Shown: positions 4,889 to 18,150 of the stretch, piece by piece
How positions within the stretch are numbered: position 1 is the stretch's first letter
Layout: every line of letters starts with the position of its first letter
Virus record (IMG/VR): IMGVR_UViG_3300050821_001527
Span: 1-64,000 of that record
Reading direction: 5' to 3' (one strand)
DNA length: 64,000 nucleotides
Origin: a virus
Lineage: Duplodnaviria; Caudoviricetes
The notes under the pieces: generated by a model
The model's input: the letters and a program-made list of their open reading frames with translations, nothing else
Databases searched by the model: none
Told to the model about the DNA's origin: nothing
Program-made: the position numbers and the translations under genes

Positions 4889-4954
4889 TAAGTGCCTGAG
4901 TATCAACGACTTGCGCGGGACGCCCCGCGTAAACCCCTGATTATCAAGGGCTTA
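4889..4954. repeat. double-dyad intergenic element, copy 1
   Basis: TAAGTGCCTGAGTATCAACGACTTG-cgcgggacgccccgcg-TAAACCCCTGATTATCAAGGGCTTA (25+16+25); its last TTA is the stop of 4952..5125. Confidence 0.92.
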
Positions 4955-5125
4955 CAGAAGACATTCGGGAATATCGTCCTCCCCGTAGTGTTTTTTCCAG
5001 TATGCCCACATTAAACGCATGGTCATTTCCGTCATCCAATAGCCATCGTTCATTGCATACCAGACTTTCATGCGTTCCAAACGCTTGAAGTCTTCCGGGT
5101 CGCCGATAAGGTTGGGGTTTACCAT
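4952..5125 (-). CDS. hypothetical protein (57 aa, not in track)
   Basis: MVNPNLIGDPEDFKRLERMKVWY...PECLL; stop lies inside element 1. Confidence 0.6.
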   Translation of the reverse strand: MVNPNLIGDPEDFKRLERMKVWYAMNDGYWMTEMTMRLMWAYWKKHYGEDDIPECLL

Positions 5126-5322
5126 TTGATTAGGCGGTAGGTTTCAGCAAGGTAGGGGCGGGCACCGCTCGCACCAAGCAAGACGCATACCAGATGAGTG
5201 GGCAAAACCATGTGGACTCTCGCCTTGACGGATTTCCATTCCTGCCCGAAACGGCCCCGGCCATTGGGGATTTGGATTTCCACGATACTGCGGACGCGGG
5301 CTTCTTTATTGGATGTGGACAT
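5119..5322 (-). CDS. hypothetical protein
   Basis: 67 aa, overlaps both neighbours in operon fashion. Confidence 0.6.
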   Translation of the reverse strand: MSTSNKEARVRSIVEIQIPNGRGRFGQEWKSVKARVHMVLPTHLVCVLLGASGARPYLAETYRLIKW

Positions 5323-5455
5323 AAACGATGTTGCTGTCTTTGCTGATTTTGTAGTTGACGCCGTAGTCCTGCAATTCCTTCACCAGAATAGCAAACCAGC
5401 GGGCTTGCTCAGGCTTGGCAATGTTGAACTCCATTGATTCGTCGCTCTTATTCAT
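5306..5455 (-). CDS. hypothetical protein (49 aa, not in track)
   Basis: MNKSDESMEFNIAKPEQARWFAILVKELQ... Confidence 0.55.
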   Translation of the reverse strand: MNKSDESMEFNIAKPEQARWFAILVKELQDYGVNYKISKDSNIVYVHIQ

Positions 5456-5467
5456 GGGCAAAGAATA

Positions 5468-5845
5468 TCAGATGTGAATAGCCATGTCAAGCCCCAATTC
5501 CACCAGTTTGCGCTGCCACATGATTTCATTCAGGGCCGACCATGCGCTATGCAGGCGGGAATGGGGGTGCTGAATGACTTCGCGGTGCAAGTCGTGGACG
5601 TAATCATTCGTGACTGGCTTCCAGCCCACGGACATGCACTGATACCATTGCCCGTCCACTTTCACGCAGTCATTGACCGACAGTGAGCGCATACGATTAC
5701 CGAGGAAGTAATCACACTCGACTTGGGAACCCGCGTTGAACCATGCGAAGACCGCTTCAAGCACTTCCGACGCGGGGCCGGTCAGTGAACAGGTCAGCGT
5801 ATGGTATTTATCGCCGGGATAGCAGACGGTGAAGGTGCGAATCAT
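5468..5845 (-). CDS. YodL-like domain protein
   Basis: LEAVFAWFN..MRSLSVNDCVKVDGQWYQCMSVGW (RSLSVxDxV motif); start set at the ATGA overlap with the upstream gene. Confidence 0.6.
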   Translation of the reverse strand: MIRTFTVCYPGDKYHTLTCSLTGPASEVLEAVFAWFNAGSQVECDYFLGNRMRSLSVNDCVKVDGQWYQCMSVGWKPVTNDYVHDLHREVIQHPHSRLHSAWSALNEIMWQRKLVELGLDMAIHI

Positions 5846-6132
5846 AGGGTGGGGGCGTTCAGACGTTGTTTGAGGAAAATTTGCCAGTTGTAAACCTGCT
5901 TGTGGCATTCGTCAACCTGACAGACATGGAAGGAGATGCCTTCCGCGCCACTGGAACCGTCGCGGACGCGGACATACCAGCGGTTCATTCCATCTTCGGG
6001 CTTTTCCAGTTTGCCATGCAGACGGATATGGATGCCGTTTCCATCTTCGCAGTCATCGCCAGCGGCGACTTCGACTTCTTGACCGACCAGTTCATTCAGC
6101 TTGGCCAGTATTGCTTCGGGGGTGTTAATCAT
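5842..6132 (-). CDS. hypothetical protein
   Basis: 96 aa; promoter TTGACA(6167-6162)-N17-TACTCT, 6 nt to ATG. Confidence 0.7.
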   Translation of the reverse strand: MINTPEAILAKLNELVGQEVEVAAGDDCEDGNGIHIRLHGKLEKPEDGMNRWYVRVRDGSSGAEGISFHVCQVDECHKQVYNWQIFLKQRLNAPTL

Positions 6133-6169
6133 GGGTAGAGAGTATCGGGATTAGTTGTGATTGTCAAGA

Positions 6170-6367
6170 CTAATTGTGTGCGGGAGAAACTTTCAGGCGG
6201 ATACAGAGCAGCACGTCACCGGGGGAGAGGATGCGCCCGCAGGCCAGTGTCACGAAACTAACCGGATACCATTCGTTGTCACTCAGTCTGGTTTCCAGTT
6301 GCGTGAATGCAGGGTCATACCGAAAAGTCATTGACTCGCCCGCAAGGTTCAAAGTGATTTCTTTCAT
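6170..6367 (-). CDS. hypothetical protein
   Basis: 65 aa, own promoter. Confidence 0.65.
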   Translation of the reverse strand: MKEITLNLAGESMTFRYDPAFTQLETRLSDNEWYPVSFVTLACGRILSPGDVLLCIRLKVSPAHN

Positions 6368-6428
6368 GGGGTAATAATAGCAGAACCGGGGAGCGTGTCA
6401 AGATATTTATTGAATTAAATTAACGACG

Positions 6429-6495
6429 CAAGTGACTCTCCATTAACGACTTAGGCGGGACGGCTCCGCGTAACCCCTTGAGCCTCAACGGGTTA
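6429..6495. repeat. double-dyad element, copy 2
   Basis: CAAGTGACTCTCCATTAACGACTTA-ggcgggacggctccgcg-TAACCCCTTGAGCCTCAACGGGTTA (25+17+25); supplies the stop of 6493..6867. Confidence 0.9.
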
Positions 6496-6867
6496 GCGGT
6501 AGAACGTGGTGTGGTCAATCGTCATCACCGGCTTTTTGTGCAGCTTGCCCTCGAAGTAGGCTTTATCCATCGGGCCACCCCAATATTTGCAGCCGCCCGT
6601 GGGGTCATGCTTGTCCGATTCATACCAAGCGTTCCACGTCTGGACGAAAACCCAGTCGGGTTCGCTTTTGATATGCTTGGCCGTGCCACCATAGACGCCC
6701 TTGAGGTTGCCGCGTGTTCGGATGACGGCGCAAATGGCAATCTTGCACTTGTAGGACTCACCCGCCGCCTCACCCACGACAGCGTTGACGACTTTATGAG
6801 AGTCCAGTTCGGCGAAGGCGGAATTGACCGCCAACGCCATCAGGATTATGAGCGCGATGCGTTTCAT
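6493..6867 (-). CDS. SleB-like cell wall hydrolase (Hydrolase_2) with signal peptide
   Basis: MKRIALIILMALAVNSAFA signal; VVGEAAGES..AICAVIRTR with catalytic GEA; DPTGGCKYW..IDHTTFY. Confidence 0.8.
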   Translation of the reverse strand: MKRIALIILMALAVNSAFAELDSHKVVNAVVGEAAGESYKCKIAICAVIRTRGNLKGVYGGTAKHIKSEPDWVFVQTWNAWYESDKHDPTGGCKYWGGPMDKAYFEGKLHKKPVMTIDHTTFYR

Positions 6868-7133
6868 CGGGCAACGTAGTGTTCACCAAACACTTGCTTG
6901 AGCGTTTCGGCGGGGCCAAAGGTGCTGAACGCATTGAACTTCTGACTGCCCTTGTAATCCCAAACGCCACAGCGAACGCCGTCCACGGTGAAGCCCCATG
7001 AGTTCTTAACCTTGTCCGGGTCATCTTCGCAGTTGGCCTTGAAACCGAGTCGCTTGACGATTTCGGCAACGGTGATGTTTTGCAGACCGCCCGTTCGGGA
7101 GTCTCCGGTTTGATTGACTGGTTTGATAATCAT
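6864..7133 (-). CDS. hypothetical protein
   Basis: 89 aa, own promoter. Confidence 0.7.
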   Translation of the reverse strand: MIIKPVNQTGDSRTGGLQNITVAEIVKRLGFKANCEDDPDKVKNSWGFTVDGVRCGVWDYKGSQKFNAFSTFGPAETLKQVFGEHYVAR

Positions 7134-7151
7134 GGGAATAGAATAGCGGGA

Positions 7152-7706
7152 TTAAACCGGCTTGTCAAGCACAATTTTCAATTCATCCACGCAGCACAAC
7201 AACTGCGCTCGCACGTATTTGAACAAGTCCGGGTCGCCGTCCACCAAGTTGGGCAACACGCGGGCCTTTTCCTTGATATACGTGACGGCAAAACCGGGGT
7301 CATGCTGCACGATGGAATTGGTGTTGTTATACAAGTCGGCCAGCTTGATTTTCTTGGCCGATTTGCCGATGGTGGCCAAGCGAGCCGCTTCCAAGACTTT
7401 TCTCTCCATGCGGTTCAAGTCCGGGTAATTCTGCGGCGTGTATAAGTCGGTCAACTCATGCACAATCAGAGCAATTTCGGTGCCAAACTCGCGCTCCAAC
7501 TGCCCGAAAGTCGTTTCGGTATCTTCCAAGGTATCGTGCAAGTGCGCGGCGGCGATTTCGGTTTCGGTGCCACCGTAAGCAGCAACTATGCCAGCCACCG
7601 CATCAGTATGCGTCCAGTATGGGGTGCCGTCATACTTGCGGACTTGTTTAACCGCGTCATGGGCGGCGTGTGCGAAGGCTTGCGCTCTGGTAATCAAATC
7701 AGTCAT
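7152..7706 (-). CDS. HD-domain small alarmone hydrolase (RelA/SpoT HD, Mesh1-like)
   Basis: AFAHAAH..QVRKYDGTPYWTH..AAAHLHDTLEDT..IKLADLYNN. Confidence 0.88.
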   Translation of the reverse strand: MTDLITRAQAFAHAAHDAVKQVRKYDGTPYWTHTDAVAGIVAAYGGTETEIAAAHLHDTLEDTETTFGQLEREFGTEIALIVHELTDLYTPQNYPDLNRMERKVLEAARLATIGKSAKKIKLADLYNNTNSIVQHDPGFAVTYIKEKARVLPNLVDGDPDLFKYVRAQLLCCVDELKIVLDKPV

Positions 7707-7758
7707 ATTGATATACTAGCCTGTTAGACGGCTGGCGTCAAGGATTATTTTGCATCCA

Positions 7759-7824
7759 TAACCTGTTGATTACCAGCCACTTGCGCGGGACACCCCGCGT
7801 AAGTCCCTCTCCGAAAGGAACTTA
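7759..7824. repeat. double-dyad element, copy 3
   Basis: TAACCTGTTGATTACCAGCCACTTG-cgcgggacaccccgcg-TAAGTCCCTCTCCGAAAGGAACTTA (25+16+25). Confidence 0.9.
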
Positions 7825-7833
7825 CGTTGGCTG

Positions 7834-8049
7834 TTAAATGAAGCGCGAGAGGAACGCCCCCACCCACGCGGGCCAGCTAAAGGCCACAAAGAAGAACACC
7901 GCAACCAGAGCGATGAACCTGACAACGCGGGAACGGTTGCCGAAGTCGCGTTTTTCGAGGGAGTTGATTGCCGTGAATCCGACCACCGCGCCGATGAGCA
8001 GGTAAAACAGGGCGAAGGCGAACAGGATGGGGAATAGGTATTGTGTCAT
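7834..8049 (-). CDS. small membrane protein
   Basis: two hydrophobic helices, 71 aa. Confidence 0.65.
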   Translation of the reverse strand: MTQYLFPILFAFALFYLLIGAVVGFTAINSLEKRDFGNRSRVVRFIALVAVFFFVAFSWPAWVGAFLSRFI

Positions 8050-8243
8050 AAGGTTTCGAGGTTAAGGTTCCAATTTTGTTTGGCGAATCTGCGTAGCGGG
8101 TGCAATCCACGTTCGCCGACATGGAAAGAGTAAAACGGTTGCTTGGTATCGGGCGGGTAGATTTTGACCGTGGACGCCTTTGTATAGTCCAAACGGAATC
8201 CCTGCCGTGCGAGTGCTTTTAGTAACTGCGGAACGTCTTTCAT
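8046..8243 (-). CDS. HicA-like fold small protein
   Basis: QLLKALARQGFRL..TVKIYPP..SFH.GERGLHPLRR resembles the HicA alpha-beta-beta-beta-alpha pattern; canonical GSH replaced by KAS. Confidence 0.45.
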   Translation of the reverse strand: MKDVPQLLKALARQGFRLDYTKASTVKIYPPDTKQPFYSFHVGERGLHPLRRFAKQNWNLNLETL

Positions 8244-8282
8244 GGTGTAAGAGTATAGGGCTATTGCCCGGTTGTCAAGGGA

Positions 8283-8792
8283 TTAAATGTCCAGATAGAG
8301 GCAATCGTAATCCACGACAATCGGCAACAGCGAGCCATCCAGAATCAACAGATTCTCGCGGTGCAAATCCCAGACGGTAATGCCCGCCTCCTCACACCTT
8401 TTGACGATTTCGCTTTTCATGGCGTAAAAGAATGTGTCATGTTCGCAACTCCAACCAAGCTGGATTGCCTTGACGAAACGGCAGACCAGCGCATACCCCT
8501 TGGAATGAATCCAGTAAACCTTGGGCGTCAGTGTGCGGTAAACGGGATTGTCCAACAGGGGCTTGACTTTCTCGTTAAACGCCGTGCTGCTGATTTTGAT
8601 GACGAAACGGCCAATGCGGTAGCAGTAGCTATAGGCACCGCTGGCAAAGAATTTCAACCCCTGACTTTCCAGCCATGCGCGGGCAGTGTCTTTGAAGTTG
8701 TATGTGTCCTCGATTTGAATGGATTCGAGATGCGCGATGATGCGCTTAATCCGAAGGCGGGTGCTGGTTCCGGGCGTAGTGTTGTTATTCAT
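8283..8792 (-). CDS. small protein-kinase-like (ePK/APH fold) protein
   Basis: FFASGAYSYCY (Gly loop), FVIKI, WDLHRENL (catalytic loop), VVDYD (DFG-like). Confidence 0.8.
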   Translation of the reverse strand: MNNNTTPGTSTRLRIKRIIAHLESIQIEDTYNFKDTARAWLESQGLKFFASGAYSYCYRIGRFVIKISSTAFNEKVKPLLDNPVYRTLTPKVYWIHSKGYALVCRFVKAIQLGWSCEHDTFFYAMKSEIVKRCEEAGITVWDLHRENLLILDGSLLPIVVDYDCLYLDI

Positions 8793-8859
8793 GTGAAGAT
8801 ATTAGTTGAATAATCGCACCGTGTCAAGGGAATATTTTGCATAAATGAATCAATCTTCA

Positions 8860-8925
8860 TAAGTGTTTGAGGCGCAGGCACTTGCGGCGGGCCACCCGCG
8901 TAACCCCCTGAGTTGCAGAGAGTTA
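8860..8925. repeat. double-dyad element, copy 4
   Basis: TAAGTGTTTGAGGCGCAGGCACTTG-cggcgggccacccgcg-TAACCCCCTGAGTTGCAGAGAGTTA (25+16+25). Confidence 0.9.
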
Positions 8926-8954
8926 CGAAACTAGCGCCGTCACGACCTACGCCG

Positions 8955-9120
8955 TCCCCTCCGGTGTTATCCAGAGGACGGGAGTTGCACCCGTCTTATC
9001 ACGACAATTTCTTTAAATTGGTGGAGACTATCGCGCCCCGCTACGCCGGATTTTTACCGGAAGGTGCTACATTTTGGCTACAGTCTTGAAACATTTTGCC
9101 TACAGTCCGCACTCTCAACA
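8955..9120 (-). ncRNA. candidate tRNA-like / degenerate tRNA RNA
   Basis: own promoter; GCGGACUGUAG...UAGUCUCCACCA (9110-9019) and a separate T-arm-like hairpin GACGGG-UGCAACU-CCCGUC (8995-8977); not an intact cloverleaf. Confidence 0.4.
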
Positions 9121-9270
9121 TCTATACTCTAGCAGATTATTTTAATCTGTCAAGAAAAATCATGCCGTATTATCGTTTAATGTCGCCCCGGCTGGGGATT
9201 GTCCTAGCGCATTATGTATAAGGGGACAGCCCATGCTCGCTTCAAAGTCCCGCCACATTCTCTAGGTCAG

Positions 9271-9388
9271 ACAGTTGGTTTTTGTGACCGCGTTTAACCG
9301 CCTGTATCGAGTCCCTACTGACCGATTACCACGCCACGCGAGGCATCATTGTTCATCTACTTACCCGATACCACCCATAACCAACTAT
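9271..9388 (-). ncRNA. candidate structured rod-like ncRNA
   Basis: promoter TTGACG-N16-TAGTAT with no ORF behind it; nested stems AUAGUUGGUU/AACCAACUGU and GUAUCGGGU/ACUCGAUAC. Confidence 0.5.
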
Positions 9389-9428
9389 AAAGATACTAAC
9401 AGATTTGCCCGGAACGTCAAGAACTATT

Positions 9429-10118
9429 TTAAACTTTCTCAACTGTCGGCTTGAGCCATATCCCGCGCTCACCCAACAGGCCGAACAAATCAAATTCATC
9501 CAGCAAGCGCAGAGCCTTGCCCGTGTCAGCGGCGAACATCTTCAAGGATTCTTCGCGGATACGCTCGGTTGAGACGTTCGCAAAGTGCTTGTAATTACAG
9601 CAGAACCCGTGCATGGCATTGGCCGTATTGCGCTCAATCCTGAATCCCTTGGTAATGGCGAAACGGATTGCACGAATCACGCGCAACGCATCTTCCCCGA
9701 AACGCACACGCGGGTCGCCTACACAGCGAATCAGTCTGTCCGTAATGTCTTCAATCCCCTTGTGCGGGTCGAGAACATCGAACTCGTTCGCGGCGTTTAC
9801 GGCAATCGCGTTCATCGTGAAGTCACGACGGGCGAGGTCATCAAAGATTGTGCCAATCGTGACGCTCTCAGGGCGGCGACCGTCGGTATAACAGCCATCC
9901 TTACGACAAAGGACGTAATCTGCCGAGCCGAGTGCGGGGACGTTGGCACGTATAGTGAAAAATTCGGGTGTTTCGAGGAAAATCTTTCCCCCGAGCGCAA
10001 TAATCGTTTCGCGCATGGAATCAAACGAAGGGGCTTCAACGGCGAAATCCATATCCTTGGACTTGACGCCCAAGAATGTATCTCTCACACTTCCGCCCAC
10101 TCTGAAAATCTTATTCAT
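9429..10118 (-). CDS. cca: tRNA nucleotidyltransferase (CCA-adding enzyme, class II), C-terminally short
   Basis: VGGSVRDTFLG..KDMDF, RKDGCYTDGRRP loop, DLARRDFTMNAIA, EDALRVIRAIRF; lacks the poly(A) polymerase GRRF signature. Confidence 0.88.
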   Translation of the reverse strand: MNKIFRVGGSVRDTFLGVKSKDMDFAVEAPSFDSMRETIIALGGKIFLETPEFFTIRANVPALGSADYVLCRKDGCYTDGRRPESVTIGTIFDDLARRDFTMNAIAVNAANEFDVLDPHKGIEDITDRLIRCVGDPRVRFGEDALRVIRAIRFAITKGFRIERNTANAMHGFCCNYKHFANVSTERIREESLKMFAADTGKALRLLDEFDLFGLLGERGIWLKPTVEKV

Positions 10119-10150
10119 TCCACTTATCCTATGGGATTAGGCCCGAACTG

Positions 10151-10378
10151 TCAAGGATTTATTCGCTTGGTGTAGGATTTGATATAGGGTTTCAGGTCAG
10201 AGGCAATAGACGCGGCAATCGCGTCAACTTCACCTTGACCGGCAGAATGGCCGCGTTCGTAGGCAGCGAATTCAATGTATTGAATGAATTCGGGCGGCAA
10301 GTCGTGATATTCAGCCTGCTTCCGTGCTGCGGCGTCCGCGTCCGCTTTGTCAACCATCGCTTGTAATTCTTTAGTCAT
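10151..10378 (-). CDS. hypothetical protein
   Basis: 75 aa, own promoter. Confidence 0.65.
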   Translation of the reverse strand: MTKELQAMVDKADADAAARKQAEYHDLPPEFIQYIEFAAYERGHSAGQGEVDAIAASIASDLKPYIKSYTKRINP

Positions 10379-10418
10379 GCTTAGAAGATAGCAGAATTTG
10401 CACCATTGTCAAGAACTA

Positions 10419-10484
10419 TATCTCGTTGTCCATCAAGGACTTGCGCGGGTGCCCCTGCGTAACCCGTTGTGGCTCAGTGGGTTA
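10419..10484. repeat. double-dyad element, copy 5
   Basis: TATCTCGTTGTCCATCAAGGACTTG-cgcgggtgcccctgcg-TAACCCGTTGTGGCTCAGTGGGTTA (25+16+25). Confidence 0.88.
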
Positions 10485-10497
10485 CGAGGTTTGCCGC

Positions 10498-10830
10498 TTA
10501 CAGCGAGAACCAGTAGCGTTTGCTGTGGCCGGTGCCGGTGAACTTGATTGCGCCGGAATTGCGGAGTTGCTTGACAGTTTGGGTGAGGGTATGGCGGGTG
10601 TAGGTGGTATAGCCGGATTCCTGAATTGCCGTTTCGATTTGCGTGACCGTCATCCCTTGGGCCTTGCGGGTGGGGAGGACATTAACGACGAGCTTTTGCA
10701 GCGGGAACGGATTGCGGGGCAACTGGCAGTTGGTCGCCCCCACCGTCCGATAGTTGGCGCGGAGATTGTCGGCGATGGTGAGGATTGCGGAGATGACGTT
10801 GGAATTCAGACCGAGCGTGTTGTTTTTCAT
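10498..10830 (-). CDS. winged-helix DNA-binding protein (putative)
   Basis: GMTVTQIETAIQESG..RHTLTQTVKQLRNSGAIKFTGTGHSKRYW follows a wHTH helix-helix-wing pattern. Confidence 0.55.
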   Translation of the reverse strand: MKNNTLGLNSNVISAILTIADNLRANYRTVGATNCQLPRNPFPLQKLVVNVLPTRKAQGMTVTQIETAIQESGYTTYTRHTLTQTVKQLRNSGAIKFTGTGHSKRYWFSL

Positions 10831-10942
10831 ATTCGTTATTTTTCTTCTGTCAGGCGTGATTGCCTTTGATGTAGAAAGAATAACAGAATTTTGTTTTGAG
10901 TCAAGGTATTTATCGAATTTTATTGAAGTATTTTTCGAGACA

Positions 10943-11008: not shown

Positions 11009-11029
11009 CGGGGTTTGTTTCAGCAGGTT

Positions 11030-11899: not shown

Positions 11900-11942
11900 G
11901 TGTAAAGAGTATCGGAATTGTTTGCGGTTGTCAAGGAAAATT

Positions 11943-12293
11943 TCAGCCGTAAATTACTTCACCAAAGGCGGCGAGTTGGGCAAAGGCGTCGAAGTCGAAG
12001 GCGTCAGACTGACAAAGCCAGTTGTCCCAATCTTCCCAGTTGGCACTGAAAGGCGGTTGCGTCAAACCCTTGGGCCATTTGGTAGGGTCGAACAGCAGCG
12101 GGAACGCGGCAATCAGTTTGGCCTTGTCCAAGTCATAGGTTTTGCCGTCCTCCGTGTCCACAAATTCAAATTCCATCTTCTTATAATCCCAGCCACGGCA
12201 TTTCAGCGTCATACCGGCTTCGGGGTGGTTGTCCATGATGGCGCGGACAATCTTTTCAACGGTTTCGTCAGGGATGACTAAGGTAATATTCAT
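11943..12293 (-). CDS. hypothetical protein
   Basis: 116 aa, acidic, own promoter. Confidence 0.7.
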   Translation of the reverse strand: MNITLVIPDETVEKIVRAIMDNHPEAGMTLKCRGWDYKKMEFEFVDTEDGKTYDLDKAKLIAAFPLLFDPTKWPKGLTQPPFSANWEDWDNWLCQSDAFDFDAFAQLAAFGEVIYG

Positions 12294-12329
12294 GTGTAGA
12301 GATTAGCGGATTGATTACCGCTTGTCAAG

Positions 12330-12641
12330 TTAAAAATCTTGGTTAATTGTGTTCAAATCGGCTTGCCAGCGGGCTAACCTGTCGCCTGCTTTTCTCAGGG
12401 CAATGCAAGCGGCCATGTGGGGATGTTTATGGGTCGCCTGAAATGATATGGCTTCGCCCAAGCTAACCGAAAAATGAAAATCAGTATCGTCATACAAACT
12501 GCATGAGATATGACACTTGCCCCTTGTCCAAGTCGCGTTGACGTTGCTGTCATCGGGCAATTTAATGCAGTTCATTTGCCACCCGTCGCCCAAAGTGGCA
12601 CGAATGCGGCTATCACGTTTCATGGCAGTTTCCAATGTCAT
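12330..12641 (-). CDS. hypothetical protein
   Basis: 103 aa, own promoter. Confidence 0.65.
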   Translation of the reverse strand: MTLETAMKRDSRIRATLGDGWQMNCIKLPDDSNVNATWTRGKCHISCSLYDDTDFHFSVSLGEAISFQATHKHPHMAACIALRKAGDRLARWQADLNTINQDF

Positions 12642-12681
12642 AGGGATAGAGTATCAGAGTTTAAGGGATTGTCAAGCTTTC

Positions 12682-12747
12682 TAAGTCGTTGACTATCAGG
12701 CACTTGCGCGGGGCGTCCCGCGTAAACAGTTGACTATCAACAGGTTA
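12682..12747. repeat. double-dyad element, copy 7
   Basis: TAAGTCGTTGACTATCAGGCACTTG-cgcggggcgtcccgcg-TAAACAGTTGACTATCAACAGGTTA (25+16+25); supplies the stop of 12745..13029. Confidence 0.92.
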
Positions 12748-13029
12748 CGCTCTCAACTGCGCCCAAACTTCGTGGGCAATCTTGATGGACTTGGCATAGA
12801 TTTTACTCTTGTGGGCCGCACCGGAGCAATTTTCATTCACCCATTGAATATCCTGCGCGTCAAGCATCAGGCAAACTTCATCCATGATTGCCGCCTCAAT
12901 CGTGCTTTCAATCCACAGGGCGAAGTTGTCAACGTGATTGACCAGCGCACGGAGTTTGGCTTCGGGATGTTTCAGAGCAGCTTTCTTGCCAATCTGCATC
13001 AACTGGGCTTCGTATCTTTCAGCGTTCAT
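12745..13029 (-). CDS. hypothetical protein
   Basis: 94 aa, helical. Confidence 0.65.
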   Translation of the reverse strand: MNAERYEAQLMQIGKKAALKHPEAKLRALVNHVDNFALWIESTIEAAIMDEVCLMLDAQDIQWVNENCSGAAHKSKIYAKSIKIAHEVWAQLRA

Positions 13030-13147
13030 TTTGACCTTTGTGTTTGGGGTGGCGGGTGTAAGCCTTTTTGCTTTTGACGATACGGGAAGCGGGATTGAAG
13101 TCCCATTGTTTCCGAACCGATTTTATGATTGAGATTTGCTTACTCAT
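13019..13147 (-). CDS. small basic peptide resembling alternative ribosome-rescue factors (ArfA/BrfA-like), 42 aa, not in track
   Basis: MSKQISIIKSVRKQWDFNPASRIVKSKKAYTRHPKHKGQNER; promoter TTGACA-N16-TACACT 6 nt upstream. Confidence 0.45.
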   Translation of the reverse strand: MSKQISIIKSVRKQWDFNPASRIVKSKKAYTRHPKHKGQNER

Positions 13148-13184
13148 AGGCAAAGTGTATCAGGTTTCGTCAGGTTGTCAAGGG

Positions 13185-13220
13185 AAAAGAAAAAACCCGT
13201 CACGCTCCGAACGCGACGGG
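13185..13220 (-). terminator. intrinsic terminator
   Basis: CCCGTCGCG-TTCGGAG-CGTGACGGG followed by TTTTTTCTTTT on the minus strand. Confidence 0.75.
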
Positions 13221-13241
13221 TCAACTACGGCCTAATTTCGC

Positions 13242-13610
13242 TTAGGCGGCGGCAGGTTGTGCGGTGAGTGTTTTGGCGTGGGTCTTGTAGCCTTCCGGCG
13301 ACAGAACCGCGAAACCGGAGAAACGAACCTTGCGGACGCGGGAAAAGCGGAACGTCAGATATTCCTTGTCGCGGCTCGTATCAATCGCGGTAAACACCGC
13401 ATTGCCCGCCGCCGAAGTCCACTTGTGGGTAACGGGGTGGCCGATGACGTTGTAACGCTGGACGGGAAGATTCGGGTGGCGGGAATCAGCCGGGGCGTAG
13501 GTCACGCGGTAGGTGGGAATGAAACGGTAGCCATTGGCGAGCATGGTGCCGAGAACGGCGAGGCCGATGATGAGCAGGAGGATGGAACTGATTAGGAGGT
13601 TTGGATTCAT
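13242..13610 (-). CDS. membrane-anchored protein with WYL-like motif
   Basis: N-terminal TM helix; FTAIDTSRDKEYLTFRFSRV resembles the WYL C-terminal motif. Confidence 0.5.
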   Translation of the reverse strand: MNPNLLISSILLLIIGLAVLGTMLANGYRFIPTYRVTYAPADSRHPNLPVQRYNVIGHPVTHKWTSAAGNAVFTAIDTSRDKEYLTFRFSRVRKVRFSGFAVLSPEGYKTHAKTLTAQPAAA

Positions 13611-13687
13611 GTTATTTTATTGTCTTTCGTTTGTTGTTTAACTTATGTGAAAAGATTATCAGGTTTGGCAACCGTTGTCAAGGGATT

Positions 13688-13897
13688 TCAGTAAGAACCA
13701 TACCCGAAAACAGTAACCACTTCGCCCACACGGTTTTCACAGTCCGCGCCGTTTGCGGCGTTTTCCTTGGTGATTCTTCGATTGGTCTGGAAATTGATTG
13801 TGCGTGGTTCACCGCCGCCATTCCAACCGTCCAAAATCATTACGTCACGGTCAGCGGGGAGTTTTTGTAAAAGTTCGATAAGGATTGATGCTTTCAT
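13688..13897 (-). CDS. hypothetical protein
   Basis: MKASILIELLQKLPADRDVMI, common phage small-protein N-terminus. Confidence 0.65.
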   Translation of the reverse strand: MKASILIELLQKLPADRDVMILDGWNGGGEPRTINFQTNRRITKENAANGADCENRVGEVVTVFGYGSY

Positions 13898-13971
13898 GCG
13901 TTAAAGATAGTCGAAACGCCACGACCAAACAAGGAAACAATCTCGCTATAGTTATTCACATTCCCTCCACT

Positions 13972-14005
13972 TGGCACGGCTCCCGCTAAAGCACAATCCA
14001 TGCCA
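13972..14005. promoter_or_regulatory. head-to-head pair of sigma54-type -24/-12 motifs
   Basis: TGGCACGGCTCCCGCT (+, 13972-13987) and TGGCATGGATTGTGCT (-, 14005-13990), 2 bp apart. Confidence 0.7.
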
Positions 14006-14009
14006 TCCA

Positions 14010-14074
14010 TAAGCCCTTGACTATCAACGACTTGCGGGGTTCCCCCGCGTAACCCATTGGTAATCAACGAGTTA
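14010..14074. repeat. double-dyad element, copy 8
   Basis: TAAGCCCTTGACTATCAACGACTTG-cggggttcccccgcg-TAACCCATTGGTAATCAACGAGTTA (25+15+25). Confidence 0.92.
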
Positions 14075-14083
14075 CGGGGATGA

Positions 14084-14320
14084 TTAAGTTTGCTGAATGC
14101 GCCTGATTAGGGCGGCTAAGGCGCGTCCCTCAAAGTTCTCAATCGGTTCGCGCAGACTACGCCCGTCAGTTGTCGAATGATTGCACTTGTCGGCGAAGTC
14201 GGCGAACAGCAGGGGCTTTGCCCAGTCTTCGGCAAAGTTTTTTCTGTCCCATCCGTCCGGGTCAAGAATGTGAATGCCGAGCAACTCACACCACGTTTCA
14301 GGCTGTAGGTAGATTTTCAT
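14084..14320 (-). CDS. hypothetical phage protein
   Basis: WCELLGIHILDPDGWDRKNF..W motif. Confidence 0.7.
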   Translation of the reverse strand: MKIYLQPETWCELLGIHILDPDGWDRKNFAEDWAKPLLFADFADKCNHSTTDGRSLREPIENFEGRALAALIRRIQQT

Positions 14321-14401
14321 TTGTGTTTCCTCAGTTCGTAAAGGAAGATTGCGCCAAAGATTAGCGCAACCCCTAGCGACAGGTAAAAGTAAAGCATACG
14401 T

Positions 14402-15079
14402 TTAGGCGACTACAAACCCAGTCGCATCAGCTTTCGCCTTGCCCTTCATAGACAGGCCGACAATGACACCGCGAGCGTCCAGAAAACGCAAATCGTTTTC
14501 GTCCCCGGAAACAACCGGCTTGCCCAAGTAAGACGCGGGCAATTCATTTCGGAAAACAACCGCGATGTTTACATTTTGCGCGGCCAGCTTTTCAACGTCA
14601 GCCTGATTGCTTTCCGAACGGGAAAAGGTCAGGTTATAGTTTGCGGGCAACTTGCCAGCGGCGAACATGCCAGCACGAAACGGATTTTTCGTGTAATCGT
14701 AAAAGTTGACCGTGGGGAATTTGTCCATGAATCCGAACCTTTCCCAAGCAACATCAGAGAGGACATTAAGGCGGATTGCCAGCTTTTTACCAAGCTTGCC
14801 AGCCTTGCGGACACCCGCCGCAATTTCCTTTTCCAGCATGGCGAGAAATTCCGCTTGGCGCTCGTTAAAGAATTTGGCTTTCGCAATACGAGCCGCTTGC
14901 ACGTTGGGGAATACGCCCATGCCGGAAGTATTCAGGCAGGCAGCAGCGCAACCCGCAGAGGCATGGGGGCAAAGATTGCGCCCGGACAAATTGAACGGCG
15001 CAAGCGACAAGCCAAGCGTAAAGTAGCCTAGCGACTCGCCTTTAAGCAGTTTGGTGTTATTGGGGGATAGTAATTTCAT
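14402..15079 (-). CDS. Gp88-family phage protein (radical SAM-like Cys motif)
   Basis: LSLAP..NLCPHASAGCAAACLNTSG..IRLNVLSDV..FYDYTK..NYNLTFSRSE..GDENDLRFLD..GLSMKG. Confidence 0.8.
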   Translation of the reverse strand: MKLLSPNNTKLLKGESLGYFTLGLSLAPFNLSGRNLCPHASAGCAAACLNTSGMGVFPNVQAARIAKAKFFNERQAEFLAMLEKEIAAGVRKAGKLGKKLAIRLNVLSDVAWERFGFMDKFPTVNFYDYTKNPFRAGMFAAGKLPANYNLTFSRSESNQADVEKLAAQNVNIAVVFRNELPASYLGKPVVSGDENDLRFLDARGVIVGLSMKGKAKADATGFVVA

Positions 15080-15112
15080 GTGGGGAGAGTGTAGGGGATT
15101 GCGCGGCCAATG

Positions 15113-15325
15113 TCAAGAGTAAATTACCGCATTGTGCTTTTCCAGAGCCGGGGCAATTTCGGCGTGAATGGTGGCTTGCAATTCCGCCATTGCCAACCGA
15201 CGGCGAACGACTTCACAGCGCAGGCGGATACGGTCAGAAACCGACTGGCGGTAATTCATGGGGATGCTCAAATTTGCCTTGACAAGCTTGGCGATGTTCG
15301 CGGGAGAGTTGATTTCAGTTTGCAT
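15113..15325 (-). CDS. hypothetical protein
   Basis: 70 aa. Confidence 0.55.
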   Translation of the reverse strand: MQTEINSPANIAKLVKANLSIPMNYRQSVSDRIRLRCEVVRRRLAMAELQATIHAEIAPALEKHNAVIYS

Positions 15326-15422
15326 ATATTGTTATACTGTTATTGTTTTATTGACTGCGTAAGTATGGGGCGAAAATGTTAGACGGTCAAGGGTTTTTTG
15401 AATTATTTTTTCAGGCAAATAT

Positions 15423-15481
15423 TGGCATGGCTCCTGCTAGAGCAATTCGTGTGCCAACCAGCCGCAGCATTTATCGTGCCA
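15423..15481. promoter_or_regulatory. three sigma54-type -24/-12 motifs
   Basis: TGGCATGGCTCCTGCT (+, 15423-15438), TGGCACACGAATTGCT (-, 15456-15441), TGGCACGATAAATGCT (-, 15481-15466). Confidence 0.72.
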
Positions 15482-15485
15482 TGCG

Positions 15486-15550
15486 TAAGTCGTTGTGGCT
15501 CAGGCACTTGCGCGGGGGCACCGCGTAACTCGTTGATAATCAACAGGTTA
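15486..15550. repeat. double-dyad element, copy 9
   Basis: TAAGTCGTTGTGGCTCAGGCACTTG-cgcgggggcaccgcg-TAACTCGTTGATAATCAACAGGTTA (25+15+25); supplies the stop of 15548..15715. Confidence 0.92.
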
Positions 15551-15715
15551 CAGATTACAGAAGTGTTCGGGGAACTGGCTTTCAATTTGAAACCTCGCCG
15601 CATCCCTAGCCAAGAAACCGGGGCGGGCCTGAGCGCGGGGATGTTGCATGTAGTAGTTGATTTCACGGCGCACACGGCGCACGAAACGAATTTGCGATGA
15701 TGTTGGGCGGTTCAT
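15548..15715 (-). CDS. hypothetical protein (55 aa, not in track)
   Basis: MNRPTSSQIRFVRRVRREINYY...HFCNL. Confidence 0.55.
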   Translation of the reverse strand: MNRPTSSQIRFVRRVRREINYYMQHPRAQARPGFLARDAARFQIESQFPEHFCNL

Positions 15716-15719
15716 AGGA

Positions 15720-15962
15720 TTACGCGGCGAAGGGATTGGGGATTGCCTGCAATTTCTGTTCCAGTTTCCAGATGGTTTTGCGGGTCTTGTTTATCTTCTT
15801 GCGGTTGGGCTTGTCGTCACCCAACATCCAGCGCAGATTGTTTTGCGCCCATGTGATTGCGAAACCCAGTTTCTTGCGGGCTTCCGTCAATTCCAGTATC
15901 CGCATGGTTGCGGGGCTTGGCGCGTAGTGAAAGGTCGAATCGGTAAAGGGGTCGCGTTTCAT
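15720..15962 (-). CDS. hypothetical basic protein
   Basis: 80 aa. Confidence 0.6.
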   Translation of the reverse strand: MKRDPFTDSTFHYAPSPATMRILELTEARKKLGFAITWAQNNLRWMLGDDKPNRKKINKTRKTIWKLEQKLQAIPNPFAA

Positions 15963-15970
15963 GTGATTGA

Positions 15971-16180
15971 TTAGTTGAGTCCGCAGGCCGCGAAAAAACG
16001 AGCTTTGTTAAAACGGGGGTTGTCGGCAAGGGCGACTTTCGCAACCATTTCGGCGGCGAATCGGGCGTTGTCGTCCGCAATGTTCATGTCAATGGTTTTG
16101 ATGCCACCGGGAGCGGGTTGGGCCGCGTCAACTTGCGCTTTGATAATCCGGGCGAATTCGATGAAATGTTTCTTTGTCAT
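15971..16180 (-). CDS. conserved phage hypothetical protein
   Basis: MTKKHFIEFARII...DNPRFNKARFFAACG; start set by the promoter 6 nt upstream. Confidence 0.7.
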   Translation of the reverse strand: MTKKHFIEFARIIKAQVDAAQPAPGGIKTIDMNIADDNARFAAEMVAKVALADNPRFNKARFFAACGLN

Positions 16181-16211
16181 GGTGATAATGTAGTTGATTA
16201 TTGGTTGCGTG

Positions 16212-16424
16212 TCAAGGTTTATTTTCTTCGATTTTTTCAACCATTACCCAGCTTGTGTTTTCCAGCGCGGCGTTAATGTCGTTCAAGCGCGATTGGTGCA
16301 GGGTAGCAAGGATATTGAGATTAGAAGCCTTGCAATCGTTCACTACCCCTTCGCACTCGCATTGCGCGATGATTAGGGCGGAACGGATTTGCCGGAACTG
16401 GTCTTCTGTCATCTGAATTTTCAT
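16212..16424 (-). CDS. hypothetical protein
   Basis: 70 aa, own promoter. Confidence 0.6.
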   Translation of the reverse strand: MKIQMTEDQFRQIRSALIIAQCECEGVVNDCKASNLNILATLHQSRLNDINAALENTSWVMVEKIEENKP

Positions 16425-16462
16425 GCCTCAAGTATCGGTTAAAAAAATGCGGTTGTCAAGGT

Positions 16463-16657
16463 TTATTTCACGTAGTATTCGCTAATGAATTCCCCGTCGC
16501 ATTCAACGCGGGAACCACAGCCCCAGCCCAAAAGCTTATAGGCCATTCCCAGCGCGGCATTCAAAGCACTCCGCACGGGGCAAGCGGTTTCGGCGAACTC
16601 GGAAGCGGAAAACTCGAAAACTTGGCTTTTGCTTATTACTTTGTAAGTCTTATTCAT
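16463..16657 (-). CDS. hypothetical protein
   Basis: 64 aa, own promoter. Confidence 0.6.
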   Translation of the reverse strand: MNKTYKVISKSQVFEFSASEFAETACPVRSALNAALGMAYKLLGWGCGSRVECDGEFISEYYVK

Positions 16658-16725
16658 GGTCTAAATCTAGTCCTTTTTGGGATAATGTCAAGGATTATTT
16701 TTGCGATTTATTACGATTTTTGCGT

Positions 16726-16741
16726 AGCAAGTTACGTGCCA
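16726..16741 (-). promoter_or_regulatory. sigma54-type -24/-12 motif
   Basis: TGGCACGTAACTTGCT, full consensus, 4 bp from element 10. Confidence 0.75.
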
Positions 16742-16745
16742 TGCG

Positions 16746-16810
16746 TAAGTGCCTGATTATCAACGGGTTGCGCGGGCCGTCCGCGTAAGTGCCTCTGTCA
16801 CAAGCACTTA
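16746..16810. repeat. double-dyad element, copy 10
   Basis: TAAGTGCCTGATTATCAACGGGTTG-cgcgggccgtccgcg-TAAGTGCCTCTGTCACAAGCACTTA (25+15+25). Confidence 0.92.
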
Positions 16811-16820
16811 CACTGGCGAT

Positions 16821-17084
16821 TTACCAGATGCCATCCAAGGCGCGTTCCTGCGCGGAAACCCCGTAGTAATCCCCATCACCCTGCGGGCCACAGCACCCAC
16901 AGCAGGGCGCGTCCTCACAGCGGCCAGTCCTGCGCTTATGCTCCGTGCGCCAGTCGTCGGCCTTGGCGGGCTTGGGTATGCCTGTAACACAGGTCTTGCA
17001 GCGGCCACCATGCTGGCGGGCATAGGTGCGTGATGTGAGTGCGCCACAGGCGCAACGTATGGTGAATTGACGATAATTACTCAT
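16821..17084 (-). CDS. Cys-rich hypothetical protein (CEDAPCCGCC motif)
   Basis: MSNYRQFTIRCACG..CKTC..RCEDAPCCGCCG; start reassigned from the track's 17168. Confidence 0.7.
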   Translation of the reverse strand: MSNYRQFTIRCACGALTSRTYARQHGGRCKTCVTGIPKPAKADDWRTEHKRRTGRCEDAPCCGCCGPQGDGDYYGVSAQERALDGIW

Positions 17085-17244
17085 TGCAGTAGTCGTTGGC
17101 TTCGTTCTGGTTGTAATCGGCGAGGTCATCCGAACCGTCACCACAGCCGGGGAAGCCAGCGCCATCATAGGGCTGTTCTTCGGGCGTGACGTGTGCGAGC
17201 CGGTGTTCGGGGTTCTGCGGGTCTAAGTCAGAGTTATTGTTCAT
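17077..17244 (-). CDS. highly acidic 55-aa peptide (not in track)
   Basis: MNNNSDLDPQNPEHRLAHVTPEEQPYDGAGFPGCGDGSDDLADYNQNEANDYCNE, 13 D/E versus 1 R; own promoter. Confidence 0.65.
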   Translation of the reverse strand: MNNNSDLDPQNPEHRLAHVTPEEQPYDGAGFPGCGDGSDDLADYNQNEANDYCNE

Positions 17245-17307
17245 GGGTATAGAGTAGCACGTATGGCTAACGTGTCAACAAGTATATTTGCATCCCAATC
17301 ATCACAT

Positions 17308-17469
17308 TGGCACGATGTATGCTATGCGTATTGGCGTGTGTAAGTCGTTGTGTATCAACGGGTTGCGCGGGGGAGCCGCGTAAGTGCTTGGTAATCAACG
17401 ACTTATGACTCGTATCACAGCAGGATGTATGCCAACCACGCTCCGAACGCGATTGGCACACTATATGCT
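17308..17469. promoter_or_regulatory. three sigma54-type -24/-12 motifs flanking element 11
   Basis: TGGCACGATGTATGCT (+, 17308-17323), TGGCATACATCCTGCT (-, 17434-17419), TGGCACACTATATGCT (+, 17454-17469). Confidence 0.68.
17341..17405. repeat. double-dyad element, copy 11
   Basis: TAAGTCGTTGTGTATCAACGGGTTG-cgcgggggagccgcg-TAAGTGCTTGGTAATCAACGACTTA (25+15+25). Confidence 0.92.
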
Positions 17470-17636
17470 TACTCAACCATCGTCAGGTTGGACGTTGCAA
17501 CGCGCTTCTGTTGTCCGTCAGGCAGTAAGATGGTAGATTGACCGTTGCGCGAATGGGCAACCACGACAACCAAGATTTCAACGGCCAGCTTGCCCGCCTT
17601 GTAGTTCGCCATTCCTTGTATGTGGTTCATGGTCAT
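17469..17636 (-). CDS. hypothetical protein (55 aa, not in track)
   Basis: MTMNHIQGMANYKAGKLAVEILVV... Confidence 0.5.
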   Translation of the reverse strand: MTMNHIQGMANYKAGKLAVEILVVVVAHSRNGQSTILLPDGQQKRVATSNLTMVE

Positions 17637-17640
17637 GGTG

Positions 17641-18075
17641 TTAGTCCAGTGAACGGCCAGCTTTGCCGTCCGTCACATAGAACGGCTCGCCAGTCATGGG
17701 TTTAATGTCAATCCTGTCCGCATTGTGGAAAGCCGCGAACGTCAACGCCGCTTGGCGATGCTCGAAAGACTGCATTGTCTGGACGGGATTGGGCAAACCG
17801 TATTCCGTCCATTGGCTCAGGTTCGCATAACGATTAACGCACACATGCCACACGTTGCCGATGCACTCGGTAACGTTCGCACGGGTTTGACCAGCAACGC
17901 CCGCTTGGGGATTGCTCCAAACATACTCACCCGTTGCGGTGGTGATGACAACCGCCACGCCCCGCTTGTCGCACTTCTCCGCAAACTTCATGGCCGCGTT
18001 CAAGCTCTCGCGGGGAGTGGGGGCGATAAACTCCAATTCAATCCCTTTCGTGGTTGCAATGTAATTCTTATTCAT
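17641..18075 (-). CDS. hypothetical protein (first gene of the leftward early block)
   Basis: MNKNYIATTKG...; promoter TTGCCA-N16-TATCTT 6 nt upstream. Confidence 0.65.
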   Translation of the reverse strand: MNKNYIATTKGIELEFIAPTPRESLNAAMKFAEKCDKRGVAVVITTATGEYVWSNPQAGVAGQTRANVTECIGNVWHVCVNRYANLSQWTEYGLPNPVQTMQSFEHRQAALTFAAFHNADRIDIKPMTGEPFYVTDGKAGRSLD

Positions 18076-18125
18076 GGATACAAGATAGCACACGCAAGGG
18101 GCATGGCAAGGGATTTCTTCAACTA

Positions 18126-18150
18126 TCTTCTGTTGATAATCAACGATTTA
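18126..18150. repeat. single arm (half copy) of the double-dyad element
   Basis: TCTTCTGTTGATAATCAACGATTTA. Confidence 0.6.

Follow-up and report, generated by a model that had tools for sequence, protein, structure and literature searches.

The early region of an uncultured 203-kb soil phage (genome G000, 202,882 bp) contains a family of repeated composite elements, most of which lie between the end of one minus-strand gene and the promoter of the next. Coordinates refer to the 64,000-nucleotide stretch of this genome analysed here (the window). Eleven full copies of 65-67 bp and one lone arm are present (Table 1), all of them between 4.9 and 18.2 kb in the early minus-strand block, and no copy exists elsewhere in the genome. 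Each copy is composed of a 25-bp arm, a GC-rich dyad of 15-17 bp and a second 25-bp arm, with the arm centres 40-42 bp apart. All copies listed in a first-pass annotation, including the lone arm, are real, and their sizes and arm spacing are as it described; the arm length is fixed at 25 bp throughout, also in copy 3. A covariance model built from the copies yields precisely 11 matches in the 202,882 bp, every one on both strands, and a scan with single arms returned no good arm outside 4.9-18.2 kb, in agreement with the proposed restriction to the minus-strand block. In addition, the pattern of the central hairpin has 11 matches (6 elements, 5 on both strands) versus 0.08 expected by chance. 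The copies had also been called co-oriented. This applies to the inner end of the left arm, which is a G in 10 of the 11 copies, but not to the rest of the element, which is dyad-symmetric.

Table 1 Coordinates of the elements, of two early promoters and of an intrinsic terminator in the window
Feature	Position	Strand	Remarks
Element 1	4889-4954		arm 4889-4913, GC dyad 4914-4929, arm 4930-4954; minus-strand ORF 4952-5125 ends on the outer TAA
Element 2	6429-6495		67 bp; minus-strand ORF 6493-6867 ends on the outer TAA; RNA contigs of two studies end at 6516
Element 3	7759-7824		right-arm centre diverged
Element 4	8860-8925		preceded by an ORF-poor stretch of about 500 bp
Element 5	10419-10484		-35 box of the next promoter begins 6 nt past the arm
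Element 6	10943-11008		RNA contig ends at 11023
Element 7	12682-12747		minus-strand ORF 12745-13029 ends on the outer TAA; next -35 box 6 nt past the arm; RNA contig ends at 12775
Element 8	14010-14074		brackets the GP88 cassette together with element 9
Element 9	15486-15550		minus-strand ORF 15548-15715 ends on the outer TAA
Element 10	16746-16810
Element 11	17341-17405
Lone arm	18126-18150		exact IHF core AATCAACGATTTA; 16 nt upstream of a TTGCCA-N16-TATCTT promoter (gene 17641-18093)
Early promoter after element 2	6374-6401	-	TTGACA-N16-TATTAT; ATG 6 nt past the -10 box
Early promoter after an element	10385-10412	-	TTGACA-N16-TATCTT; ATG 6 nt past the -10 box, looks leaderless
Ordinary intrinsic terminator	13194-13222	-	13-bp stem and U-tract; closes a unit without an element

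The family is widespread in one clade of uncultured phages, from which 460 distinct double elements were collected at about 100 loci; none was found in cultured phages. The carriers have TerL, PhoH, a sigma-like protein and GP88 in common, and contigs chosen by GP88 homology alone possess the arms, too. Two carrier contigs were binned with gammaproteobacterial MAGs, which is weak evidence on the host. The number of copies differs, with 2 in the relative G001 and 15 in the relative G002, where they serve both gene orientations. The cassette-like early gene content varies between relatives while the elements stay conserved. GP88 is the sole early gene in common and the only conserved one inside the arrays; it has an alpha/beta, enzyme-like fold with a C-x6-C-x3-C motif and not a DNA-binding domain. 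The distance from arm to arm clusters at 41-42, 48-49 and 50-52 bp, so that helical phasing is not universal. In some relatives, among them L108 and L264, tandem arms 34-38 bp apart exist without a GC dyad, and such runs look more like an operator or iteron array.

Promoters, terminators and RNA ends

The position between a gene end and a TTGACA-type promoter, as already described in the first-pass annotation, is seen in about 8-9 of the 11 cases. The outer TAA of an arm indeed serves as stop codon of the four ORFs for which this had been claimed (Table 1), and a fifth candidate ORF ends at 16808. Across the clade, 91 of 246 oriented elements have the stop codon of the upstream ORF inside the first arm or within 20 nt on its upstream side. 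About 24 TTGACA-type promoters were found in the block, typically one straight after each element, at an arm-to-promoter distance of 5-90 nt. Since the promoters are about twice as many as the elements, and half of them lack one, the elements mark the ends of units and do not accompany each promoter.

The absence of U-tracts could be verified for 11 of 11 copies, and a terminator scan of the coding strand did not pick any element. An ordinary terminator exists in the same block (Table 1). It closes an element-free unit and, with RNA contigs ending 13-28 nt short of it, serves as an internal comparison. Low-depth contigs from soil metatranscriptomes end 14-27 nt before elements 2, 6 and 7, and among the matches listed, which comprise all but 34 of the RNA pieces, none crosses an element, which is a weak hint at termination near the elements. 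In one relative (L269) a canonical terminator is located immediately before an element, so that the element need not itself be a terminator.

Sequence conservation and base pairing

The consensus of 788 unique arms from the clade is TAAGTCGTTGA-TWA-TCAACGACTTA, a perfect 25-bp palindrome with 12-bp half-sites that runs through the centre as T-W-A; A2, T9, A17 and T24 reach about 100% in the position frequencies. The N4 positions, which had been regarded as free, in fact have the consensus GTCG/CGAC and are partly conserved. No covariation between the supposed hairpin partners was detected in these 788 arms (mutual information at most 0.11 bit), and within-arm complementarity at N4 is 54-57% versus 51-53% after shuffling. 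Furthermore, a coding-strand excess of G-U pairs is missing in the clade (308 G-U versus 336 A-C), and pairing between the two arms, as one long hairpin would require, does not exceed that of shuffled sequences. The centre is different: with 83% GC it folds at -10.0 kcal/mol compared with -6.7 kcal/mol for shuffled sequences, without strand bias, and its length varies from 15 to 27 bp. The GC dyad is probably selected for structure and not for sequence, and it is the only part that behaves as structure.

These data bear on the possibility that the element works as RNA, folding at mRNA 3' ends into three adjacent hairpins or a single long one. In that case it could serve as an atypical terminator, as an RNase III-type processing site or to stabilise 3' ends, comparable to the T7 early RNase III sites or to REP stabilisers. 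The location at gene 3' ends, often with a common stop codon, and the RNA contigs ending just before elements agree with such a function. In G000, the gene-proximal arm, corresponding to the 5' hairpin in RNA sense, is paired in 86% of cells, compared with 64.5% for the promoter-proximal arm; it includes several G-U pairs, and both partners have changed in 7 of its 12 pairs. Because the gene-proximal arm pairs better in this genome, a local RNA role may still exist. Complete pairing of right arms through G-U, which had been reported for several copies, is true for only 2 of the 11 (4889 and 7759) and is not a property of the family. The block of plus-strand genes in G002 does show a bias of G-U pairs to the coding strand (23 to 4). 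However, this signal stems from near-identical duplicated copies, and the clade as a whole exhibits neither covariation nor a G-U excess; the stem sequence is conserved rather than covarying. The lack of U-tracts also argues against an RNA element, as do the T-tracts upstream and A-tracts downstream of the elements in relatives, the reverse of a terminator, and no Rfam family matched any element in positions 1-20000 at E values up to 1. We regard this explanation as quite unlikely. Since the arms are conserved in sequence and have neither covariation nor strand bias, they are predicted to be protein sites on double-stranded DNA instead of RNA hairpins. Among the three readings offered by the first-pass annotation (cassette shuffling, a protein-bound insulator or operator array, and signals for DNA entry or organisation), the second accordingly fits best.

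The match to the IHF core

The earlier statement that the element matches no known pattern does not hold, because the consensus contains the IHF core in both orientations and the layout is close to that of the PeSL cassettes of T4-type phages (PMC2839356). Each arm comprises two inverted, overlapping copies of the IHF core consensus, WATCAR-N4-TTR (PMC10380432). An exact match to the 13-nt core is present in 12 of the 23 arms of this genome and in 60% of the 788 clade arms, and exact WATCAANNNNTTR matches occur 17 times in the window versus 3.2 expected, 13 of the 17 inside arms. The clade-invariant arm positions are exactly those of the core, and the arms vary between A and G at the two degenerate R positions of the consensus; only about one arm in two has an A before TCAA. 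Canonical IHF sites, such as H' of lambda attP, are asymmetric and possess an upstream A/T tract. The arms share the 13-nt core with them but are palindromic, with overlapping cores; no A/T tract lies upstream of them at the customary distance, and their N4 is partly conserved. As the arm is built from two inverted overlapping cores (YAA-N4-YTGAT-W-ATCAR-N4-TTR), the host DNA-bending protein IHF is the likeliest candidate for its binding. Neither of the two genomes searched encodes an HU/IHF homologue, and therefore a host protein would be needed.

It is also conceivable that the resemblance to IHF sites is a coincidence and that the arms are operators for a dimeric DNA-binding protein, encoded by the phage or delivered with the virion, which shuts off or partitions the early region. 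The arms would then be comparable to the stoperators of L5-type mycobacteriophages, at which a repressor acts as a roadblock, or to the dispersed operators of P1. A perfect palindrome with 12-bp half-sites and a T-W-A centre would suit such a dimer; the N4 conservation exceeds what IHF requires, dyad-free tandem arms exist, and clade-wide conservation of the arms is expected of a co-inherited factor. However, no candidate protein was found, since GP88 is enzyme-like, and neither the variable arm-promoter distance nor the many promoters without an element speak for operators. The coincidence of the invariant positions with the IHF core is a further argument against this explanation, which appears unlikely to us.

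Cassette exchange, proposed boundary function and known systems

Comparison of close relatives, as suggested in the first-pass annotation, revealed 32 insertion-type differences; in 11 of them both ends lie no further than 30 nt from an arm, against an expectation of about 1.6%. L102, for instance, possesses a promoter-ORF cassette that L173 lacks, and L245 carries a hybrid element. The junctions overlap by 16-76 bp of element sequence, which is what homologous recombination between repeats would leave. Ends of homologous segments show no enrichment at elements beyond that at intergenic DNA generally. The elements are sites of cassette gain and loss between close relatives, whose insertions and deletions end at arms far more frequently than expected by chance. 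Homologues of Phage_integrase (PF00589), Resolvase and Y1_Tnp (PF01797) were not found in G000 (91% complete) or in G002 (100% complete); control genomes match, in the case of PF00589 14 of 14.

The cassette-shuffling system of the first-pass annotation is therefore supported as an evolutionary outcome, with arm-bounded events and hybrid elements, but not as a dedicated system, for neither recombinase nor transposase was found and the cassettes have their own promoters. A dedicated system would use the arms as sites of site-specific or transpositional mobility, either as attC-like cassette junctions or as REPIN/MITE-like units moved by a recombinase or a RAYT. The differing cassette content between conserved elements, the arm-bounded insertions and deletions and the stop codons shared as in attC are reminiscent of it. 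However, apart from the missing enzymes, the 3-bp arm centre is too short for the overlap region of a tyrosine recombinase, the junction overlaps resemble homologous recombination, and the segment ends are not enriched beyond intergenic DNA. Such a system is highly improbable. Integron attC arrays are characterised by an IntI encoded with the array, covarying R/L boxes and promoterless cassettes read from Pc. The elements described here resemble attC sites as cassette junctions with an outer TAA usable as stop codon, but there is no integrase and no covarying folded-strand structure, and the analogy fails since each cassette has its own promoter. The attC and REPIN readings were both rejected, as neither a tyrosine/serine recombinase nor a Y1 transposase was found in G000 or G002.

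Our preferred explanation, to which we give about an even chance, is that of a composite DNA module which sets the boundaries of early transcription units. The two 25-bp palindromes would be docking sites for a sequence-specific DNA-binding protein and would clamp the 15-27-bp dyad of about 83% GC. The module stands straight after a stop codon and ahead of the next early promoter, which is of sigma-70 type and mostly leaderless. The GC stem-loop may stop or attenuate read-through like the U-tract-less G/C stem-loops of T4-type PeSL cassettes, and bent, protein-bound arms could strengthen the boundary in either orientation, as a roadblock or by supercoil insulation. Because the same module of about 70 bp stands between all cassettes, homologous recombination between copies would delete, insert and swap them. 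A more far-reaching idea, which we consider tentative and rather doubtful, is a new kind of orientation-independent, protein-dependent boundary of transcription and topology. Here, IHF-bent palindromes clamping the GC dyad would stop RNA polymerase or the spread of supercoils without a U-tract, clade-wide and so that dozens of strong leaderless early promoters could be run next to one another. The order of stop codon, IHF-type palindrome, GC dyad, palindrome and leaderless sigma-70 promoter represents a testable grammar for the early region of an abundant uncultured phage clade. If IHF or another factor binds, this would be a new route to U-tract-independent, bidirectional transcription boundaries, and a portable insulator part for synthetic biology.

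Several known systems have features in common with this module. The stoperators of L5-type mycobacteriophages and the dispersed C1 operators of P1 likewise place one type of protein site at many gene boundaries of a phage. Those sites, however, are short and lack symmetry, have a fixed orientation relative to transcription and are recognised by a known phage repressor. The sites described here are symmetric, come in pairs with a GC dyad between them and occur only in the early block, and a repressor for them was not found.

The BIME-1 (RIB/RIP) elements of E. coli are likewise repeated composites of GC-rich palindromes and an IHF consensus at the 3' ends of transcription units. They were proposed to be terminators, mRNA stabilisers or supercoil insulators (Boccard and Prentki 1993, cited in PMC3333891). 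Two inverted REPs surround one IHF site in BIME-1, whereas two IHF-type palindromes surround one GC dyad here. In addition, the present elements are phage-borne, have no REP sequence similarity and come without a RAYT (no PF01797 match in G000 or G002).

A close likeness exists to the PeSL (promoter-early stem-loop) cassettes of T4-type phages, which are intergenic modules of a hypervariable early region, too (PMC2839356). In both, an upstream stop codon, a G/C-rich stem-loop without obvious U-tract and a strong sigma-70-type early promoter are combined, and the insertions, deletions and replacements that distinguish close relatives break at the repeated copies. In vivo, PeSL stem-loops match rrnB T1 in the strength of termination, and they also bring about shuffling (Arbiol et al. 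2010, PMC2839356); a stable GC stem-loop near a sigma-70-type early promoter and recombination between copies were found here as well. Differences concern the unrelated, uncultured clade, the conserved 25-bp palindrome on both sides, which is absent from PeSLs, and the stem-loop, which lies outside the promoter here but within it in PeSLs; many downstream genes here also look leaderless. The module would explain the exchange of accessory early genes by inter-module recombination and thereby extend the PeSL model beyond the T4-type phages.

Anatomy and distribution of the elements

The window takes up the first 64 kb of its source contig, a 202,882-bp IMG/VR virus, 91% complete, from soil metagenomes, and small minus-strand genes form a block at 4.1–18.7 kb of the window. 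No close relative was found among 50,697 cultured-phage records. Against these phages neither megablast of the element region nor tblastn of an 849-aa protein gave a match, two elements searched by blastn gave no match or chance matches only, and the best similarity of the large terminase was only ~25% identity.

Eleven units with starts from 4889 to 17341 each hold a 15–17-bp GC-rich dyad between two 25-bp arms and measure 65–67 bp in total. The central pattern TTGCGCGGG-N4-CCCGCGTAA (at most three mismatches) is matched 11 times, compared with 0.08 matches expected, in six elements, five of which match on both strands. With the copies as input, a covariance model recovered the same eleven and nothing else in the whole genome, each on both strands, and a position-by-position scan for single arms found strong arms at 4.9–18.2 kb only, including a lone arm at 18126. 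The eleven arm-dyad-arm copies of the first-pass annotation and its half copy at 18126 are borne out. Rfam and tRNA scans gave nothing at the elements.

Scanning IMG/VR with the central motif yielded two relatives of the same architecture, G001 (11.8 kb) and G002 (137.7 kb, complete), in which the covariance model finds 2 and 15 copies, respectively, those of G002 all within a single 13-kb stretch of small genes. Two further pattern scans gave more than 116 stretches, and at least 460 distinct double elements were collected from at least 100 loci, 83 of which hold two or more; the arm-to-arm spacing falls into classes of 41–42, 48–49 and 50–52 bp. The carriers are related, having in common a large terminase (36–70% identity), PhoH, a sigma-like protein, an ERCC4 nuclease and GP88, and arms are also present in contigs picked solely for their GP88 homologues. 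Since this phage (G000) and G002 have no related early genes apart from GP88, with elements on either side of it in each, the elements are far better conserved than the genes between them. The element is a real, non-random and clade-wide feature. Tandem runs of 4–7 arms, 34–58 bp apart and partly without GC dyads, occur in relatives (locus L108, 6053–6228; locus L264, 54–351) and suggest larger nucleoprotein arrays.

Genes, promoters and stretches in the window
Feature	Position	Strand	Remark
GP88 (PF17338)	14402-15079	minus	the one early gene conserved clade-wide
Early promoters	5462-18109, e.g. 6374-6401, 8799-8827, 10385-10412, 16664-16691	minus	unusually rigid TTGACA-N16/17-TAnnnT form
PolyA_pol/CCA-type nucleotidyltransferase head domain, short, 229 aa	9429-10118	minus	distinct early gene
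HD_4 protein, 184 aa	7152-7706	minus	separate early gene
ORF-poor stretch, ~500 bp	8927-9428	minus	two promoter-like sites, 9420-9393 and 9153-9126
Sigma-like, ERCC4, endonuclease VII/HNH-like genes	25277-25960, 26889-27977, 4141-4767, 23748-24344	+, +, -, +	side observation

Among the other early genes, the nucleotidyltransferase head and the HD_4 protein together look like a split CCA-adding enzyme. The ORF-poor stretch contains no ORF of at least 50 aa wholly inside it on the coding strand and no Rfam match, and its fold is not significant (z = −1.1 and +0.4); small proteins or small RNAs are possible products. A sigma-like phage protein, conserved in the clade, is suggested by a weak Sigma70_r2 match. 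The ERCC4 nuclease, which carries a C2H2 zinc finger, is located directly upstream of the large terminase gene, and several endonuclease VII/HNH-like paralogues are present.

The arms as DNA sites and their candidate binding proteins

Together, 788 unique arms give the consensus TAAGTCGTTGA-TWA-TCAACGACTTA, with several positions 97–100% invariant. In the same set the mutual information between hairpin partner positions does not exceed 0.11 bit. At the inner four arm positions Watson-Crick pairing amounts to only 40–70%, and complementarity within an arm (54–57%) is barely higher than for shuffled partners (51–53%). Selection for a hairpin would give covariation, of which the partner positions show none; as far as base variation can tell, each arm is a sequence-specific site in double-stranded DNA. 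A single long hairpin of left with right arm is discarded as well, inter-arm complementarity being at or below the shuffled level. Full pairing of right arms via G-U, noted in the first-pass annotation, applies to two copies of G000 but is a local feature and no property of the family: the G-U strand bias, considered as evidence for RNA, is seen in the right arms of G000 and in one block of G002 and is gone in 466 oriented unique arms. Among 246 elements oriented by flanking ORFs, coding-strand G-U pairs (308) are not in excess over A-C pairs (336). The better pairing of the gene-proximal arm in G000 (86% vs 64.5% of cells) is local too. The GC centre varies freely in sequence and length, while its GC content stays at ~83%, and it folds at −10.0 kcal/mol compared with −6.7 for shuffled sequence, equally on both strands; it is a structural dyad. 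The two-fold symmetry of the whole unit accords with the situation in G002, where elements serve plus-strand and minus-strand gene blocks alike.

The clade-invariant arm positions read YAA-N4-YTGAT-W-ATCAR-N4-TTR, in which the IHF core consensus WATCAR-N4-TTR (PMC10380432) appears twice, inverted and overlapping, and the A/G variation of the arms falls exactly at both R positions of this consensus. The window has 17 exact copies of WATCAANNNNTTR (3.2 expected), 13 of them inside arms. Across the clade the core is present in at least one orientation in 60% of the arms, and in 84% of the elements one or both arms match. No gene for an HU/IHF-family protein was found in G000 or G002, so the protein reading the arms would have to come from the host. 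Two carrier contigs are binned in gammaproteobacterial MAGs, which hints weakly at an IHF-containing host. A serious rival to IHF is a dedicated dimer of phage or host origin, because canonical IHF sites are asymmetric whereas the arms are palindromic with partly conserved N4 positions, only about every second arm has an A ahead of TCAA, and in some relatives arm runs 34–38 bp apart lack the dyad. GP88, though no other gene inside the arrays is conserved, was rejected as arm binder: its model (pLDDT 88.7) shows an enzyme-like alpha/beta fold and lacks a DNA-binding domain, and its TIM-barrel or radical-SAM-like matches are only weak. More than 7,700 GP88 homologues exist in metagenomes (the best 120 at 58–76% identity), and a C-x6-C-x3-C motif is invariant.

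The exact palindrome AAGTCGTTGA-N3-TCAACGACTT also turns up in bacterial genome contigs, with 33 stretches, a number within chance since a perfect 10-bp stem has only 10 independent bases. Three of them, from two MAG records, are carrier phage DNA (L269 and L278 on one Enterobacterales-binned contig; L276, Cellvibrionales-binned). The others are single perfect hairpins, many of them serving as terminators beside tRNA or tmRNA genes in several bacterial phyla (L293, L295, L297, L286, L284, L267 and others); the latter are probably chance terminator hairpins.

Probable recombination between elements

Cassette shuffling, one of the readings in the first-pass annotation, is supported as an evolutionary outcome by differences bounded by arms and by hybrid elements. 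Between relatives with an identity of 85% or more, both ends lie at most 30 nt from an arm in 11 of 32 insertion-type differences (~1.6% expected), and the junctions of arm-bounded differences overlap by 16–76 bp of element sequence. At locus L102 an additional unit, made of a half element, a promoter, a small ORF and a half element, stands in place of the single element of L173, and an element of L245 is a hybrid of two L074 elements. Homologous recombination between dispersed repeats gives rise to such patterns, and the same process has been described for the promoter-early stem-loop (PeSL) cassettes of T4-type phages. A search of G000 and G002 for genes of a tyrosine or serine recombinase or a Y1 transposase found none, and with this the integron and REPIN readings fail. 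In diverged relatives the ends of homologous segments are 2.6-fold enriched near elements compared with random positions but not compared with non-ORF positions; their intergenic location explains the enrichment, which is no specific evidence for breakpoints at elements.

Proposed boundaries of transcription units and known counterparts

In 91 of 246 oriented elements the upstream stop codon lies inside the arm or at most 20 nt before it, and in 24 it is the arm's own TAA; in G000 this holds for the four ORFs already annotated so and possibly for a fifth. The next promoter follows at a variable distance of 5–90 nt. A stop just before and a promoter at variable distance behind suggest that the element acts where transcription units end. 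In G000 a promoter begins within 6–60 nt after most elements (RNA sense), with an ATG 6 nt past the −10 box; in the clade the ATG is located 4–7 nt past the box in 82 of 109 element-adjacent promoter matches, and early mRNAs accordingly spaced look leaderless, judging from this arrangement. The early block comprises ~24 promoter-like sites and 11 elements, so the elements close gene groups rather than precede every promoter.

Intrinsic termination of the ordinary type is ruled out, as no U-tract follows the elements and relatives carry T-tracts before and A-tracts after them; the block has a single canonical terminator (13222–13194, minus). RNA evidence comes from the end points of soil metatranscriptome contigs, contig depth and uncovered bins being too shallow. 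Contigs of two studies both end at 6516, 21 nt ahead of element 2 (6429–6495), others end 14 and 27 nt ahead of elements 6 (10943–11008) and 7 (12682–12747), and at the canonical terminator contigs end 13 and 28 nt short of it. Among the RNA pieces listed none crosses an element. These ends hint faintly at reduced read-through, in the same direction as PeSL termination.

The PeSL cassette is the closest experimentally studied analogue: its G/C stem-loop, without an obvious U-tract, cuts read-through as strongly as rrnB T1 (PMC2839356). The element is best read as a PeSL-like boundary module, a GC stem-loop clamped by two IHF-type palindromes, with protein binding and termination both putative. 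GC palindromes combined with an IHF site at operon 3' ends are also known from BIME-1/RIP of E. coli, to which transcription termination, mRNA stability and the insulation of supercoils have been linked (PMC3333891).
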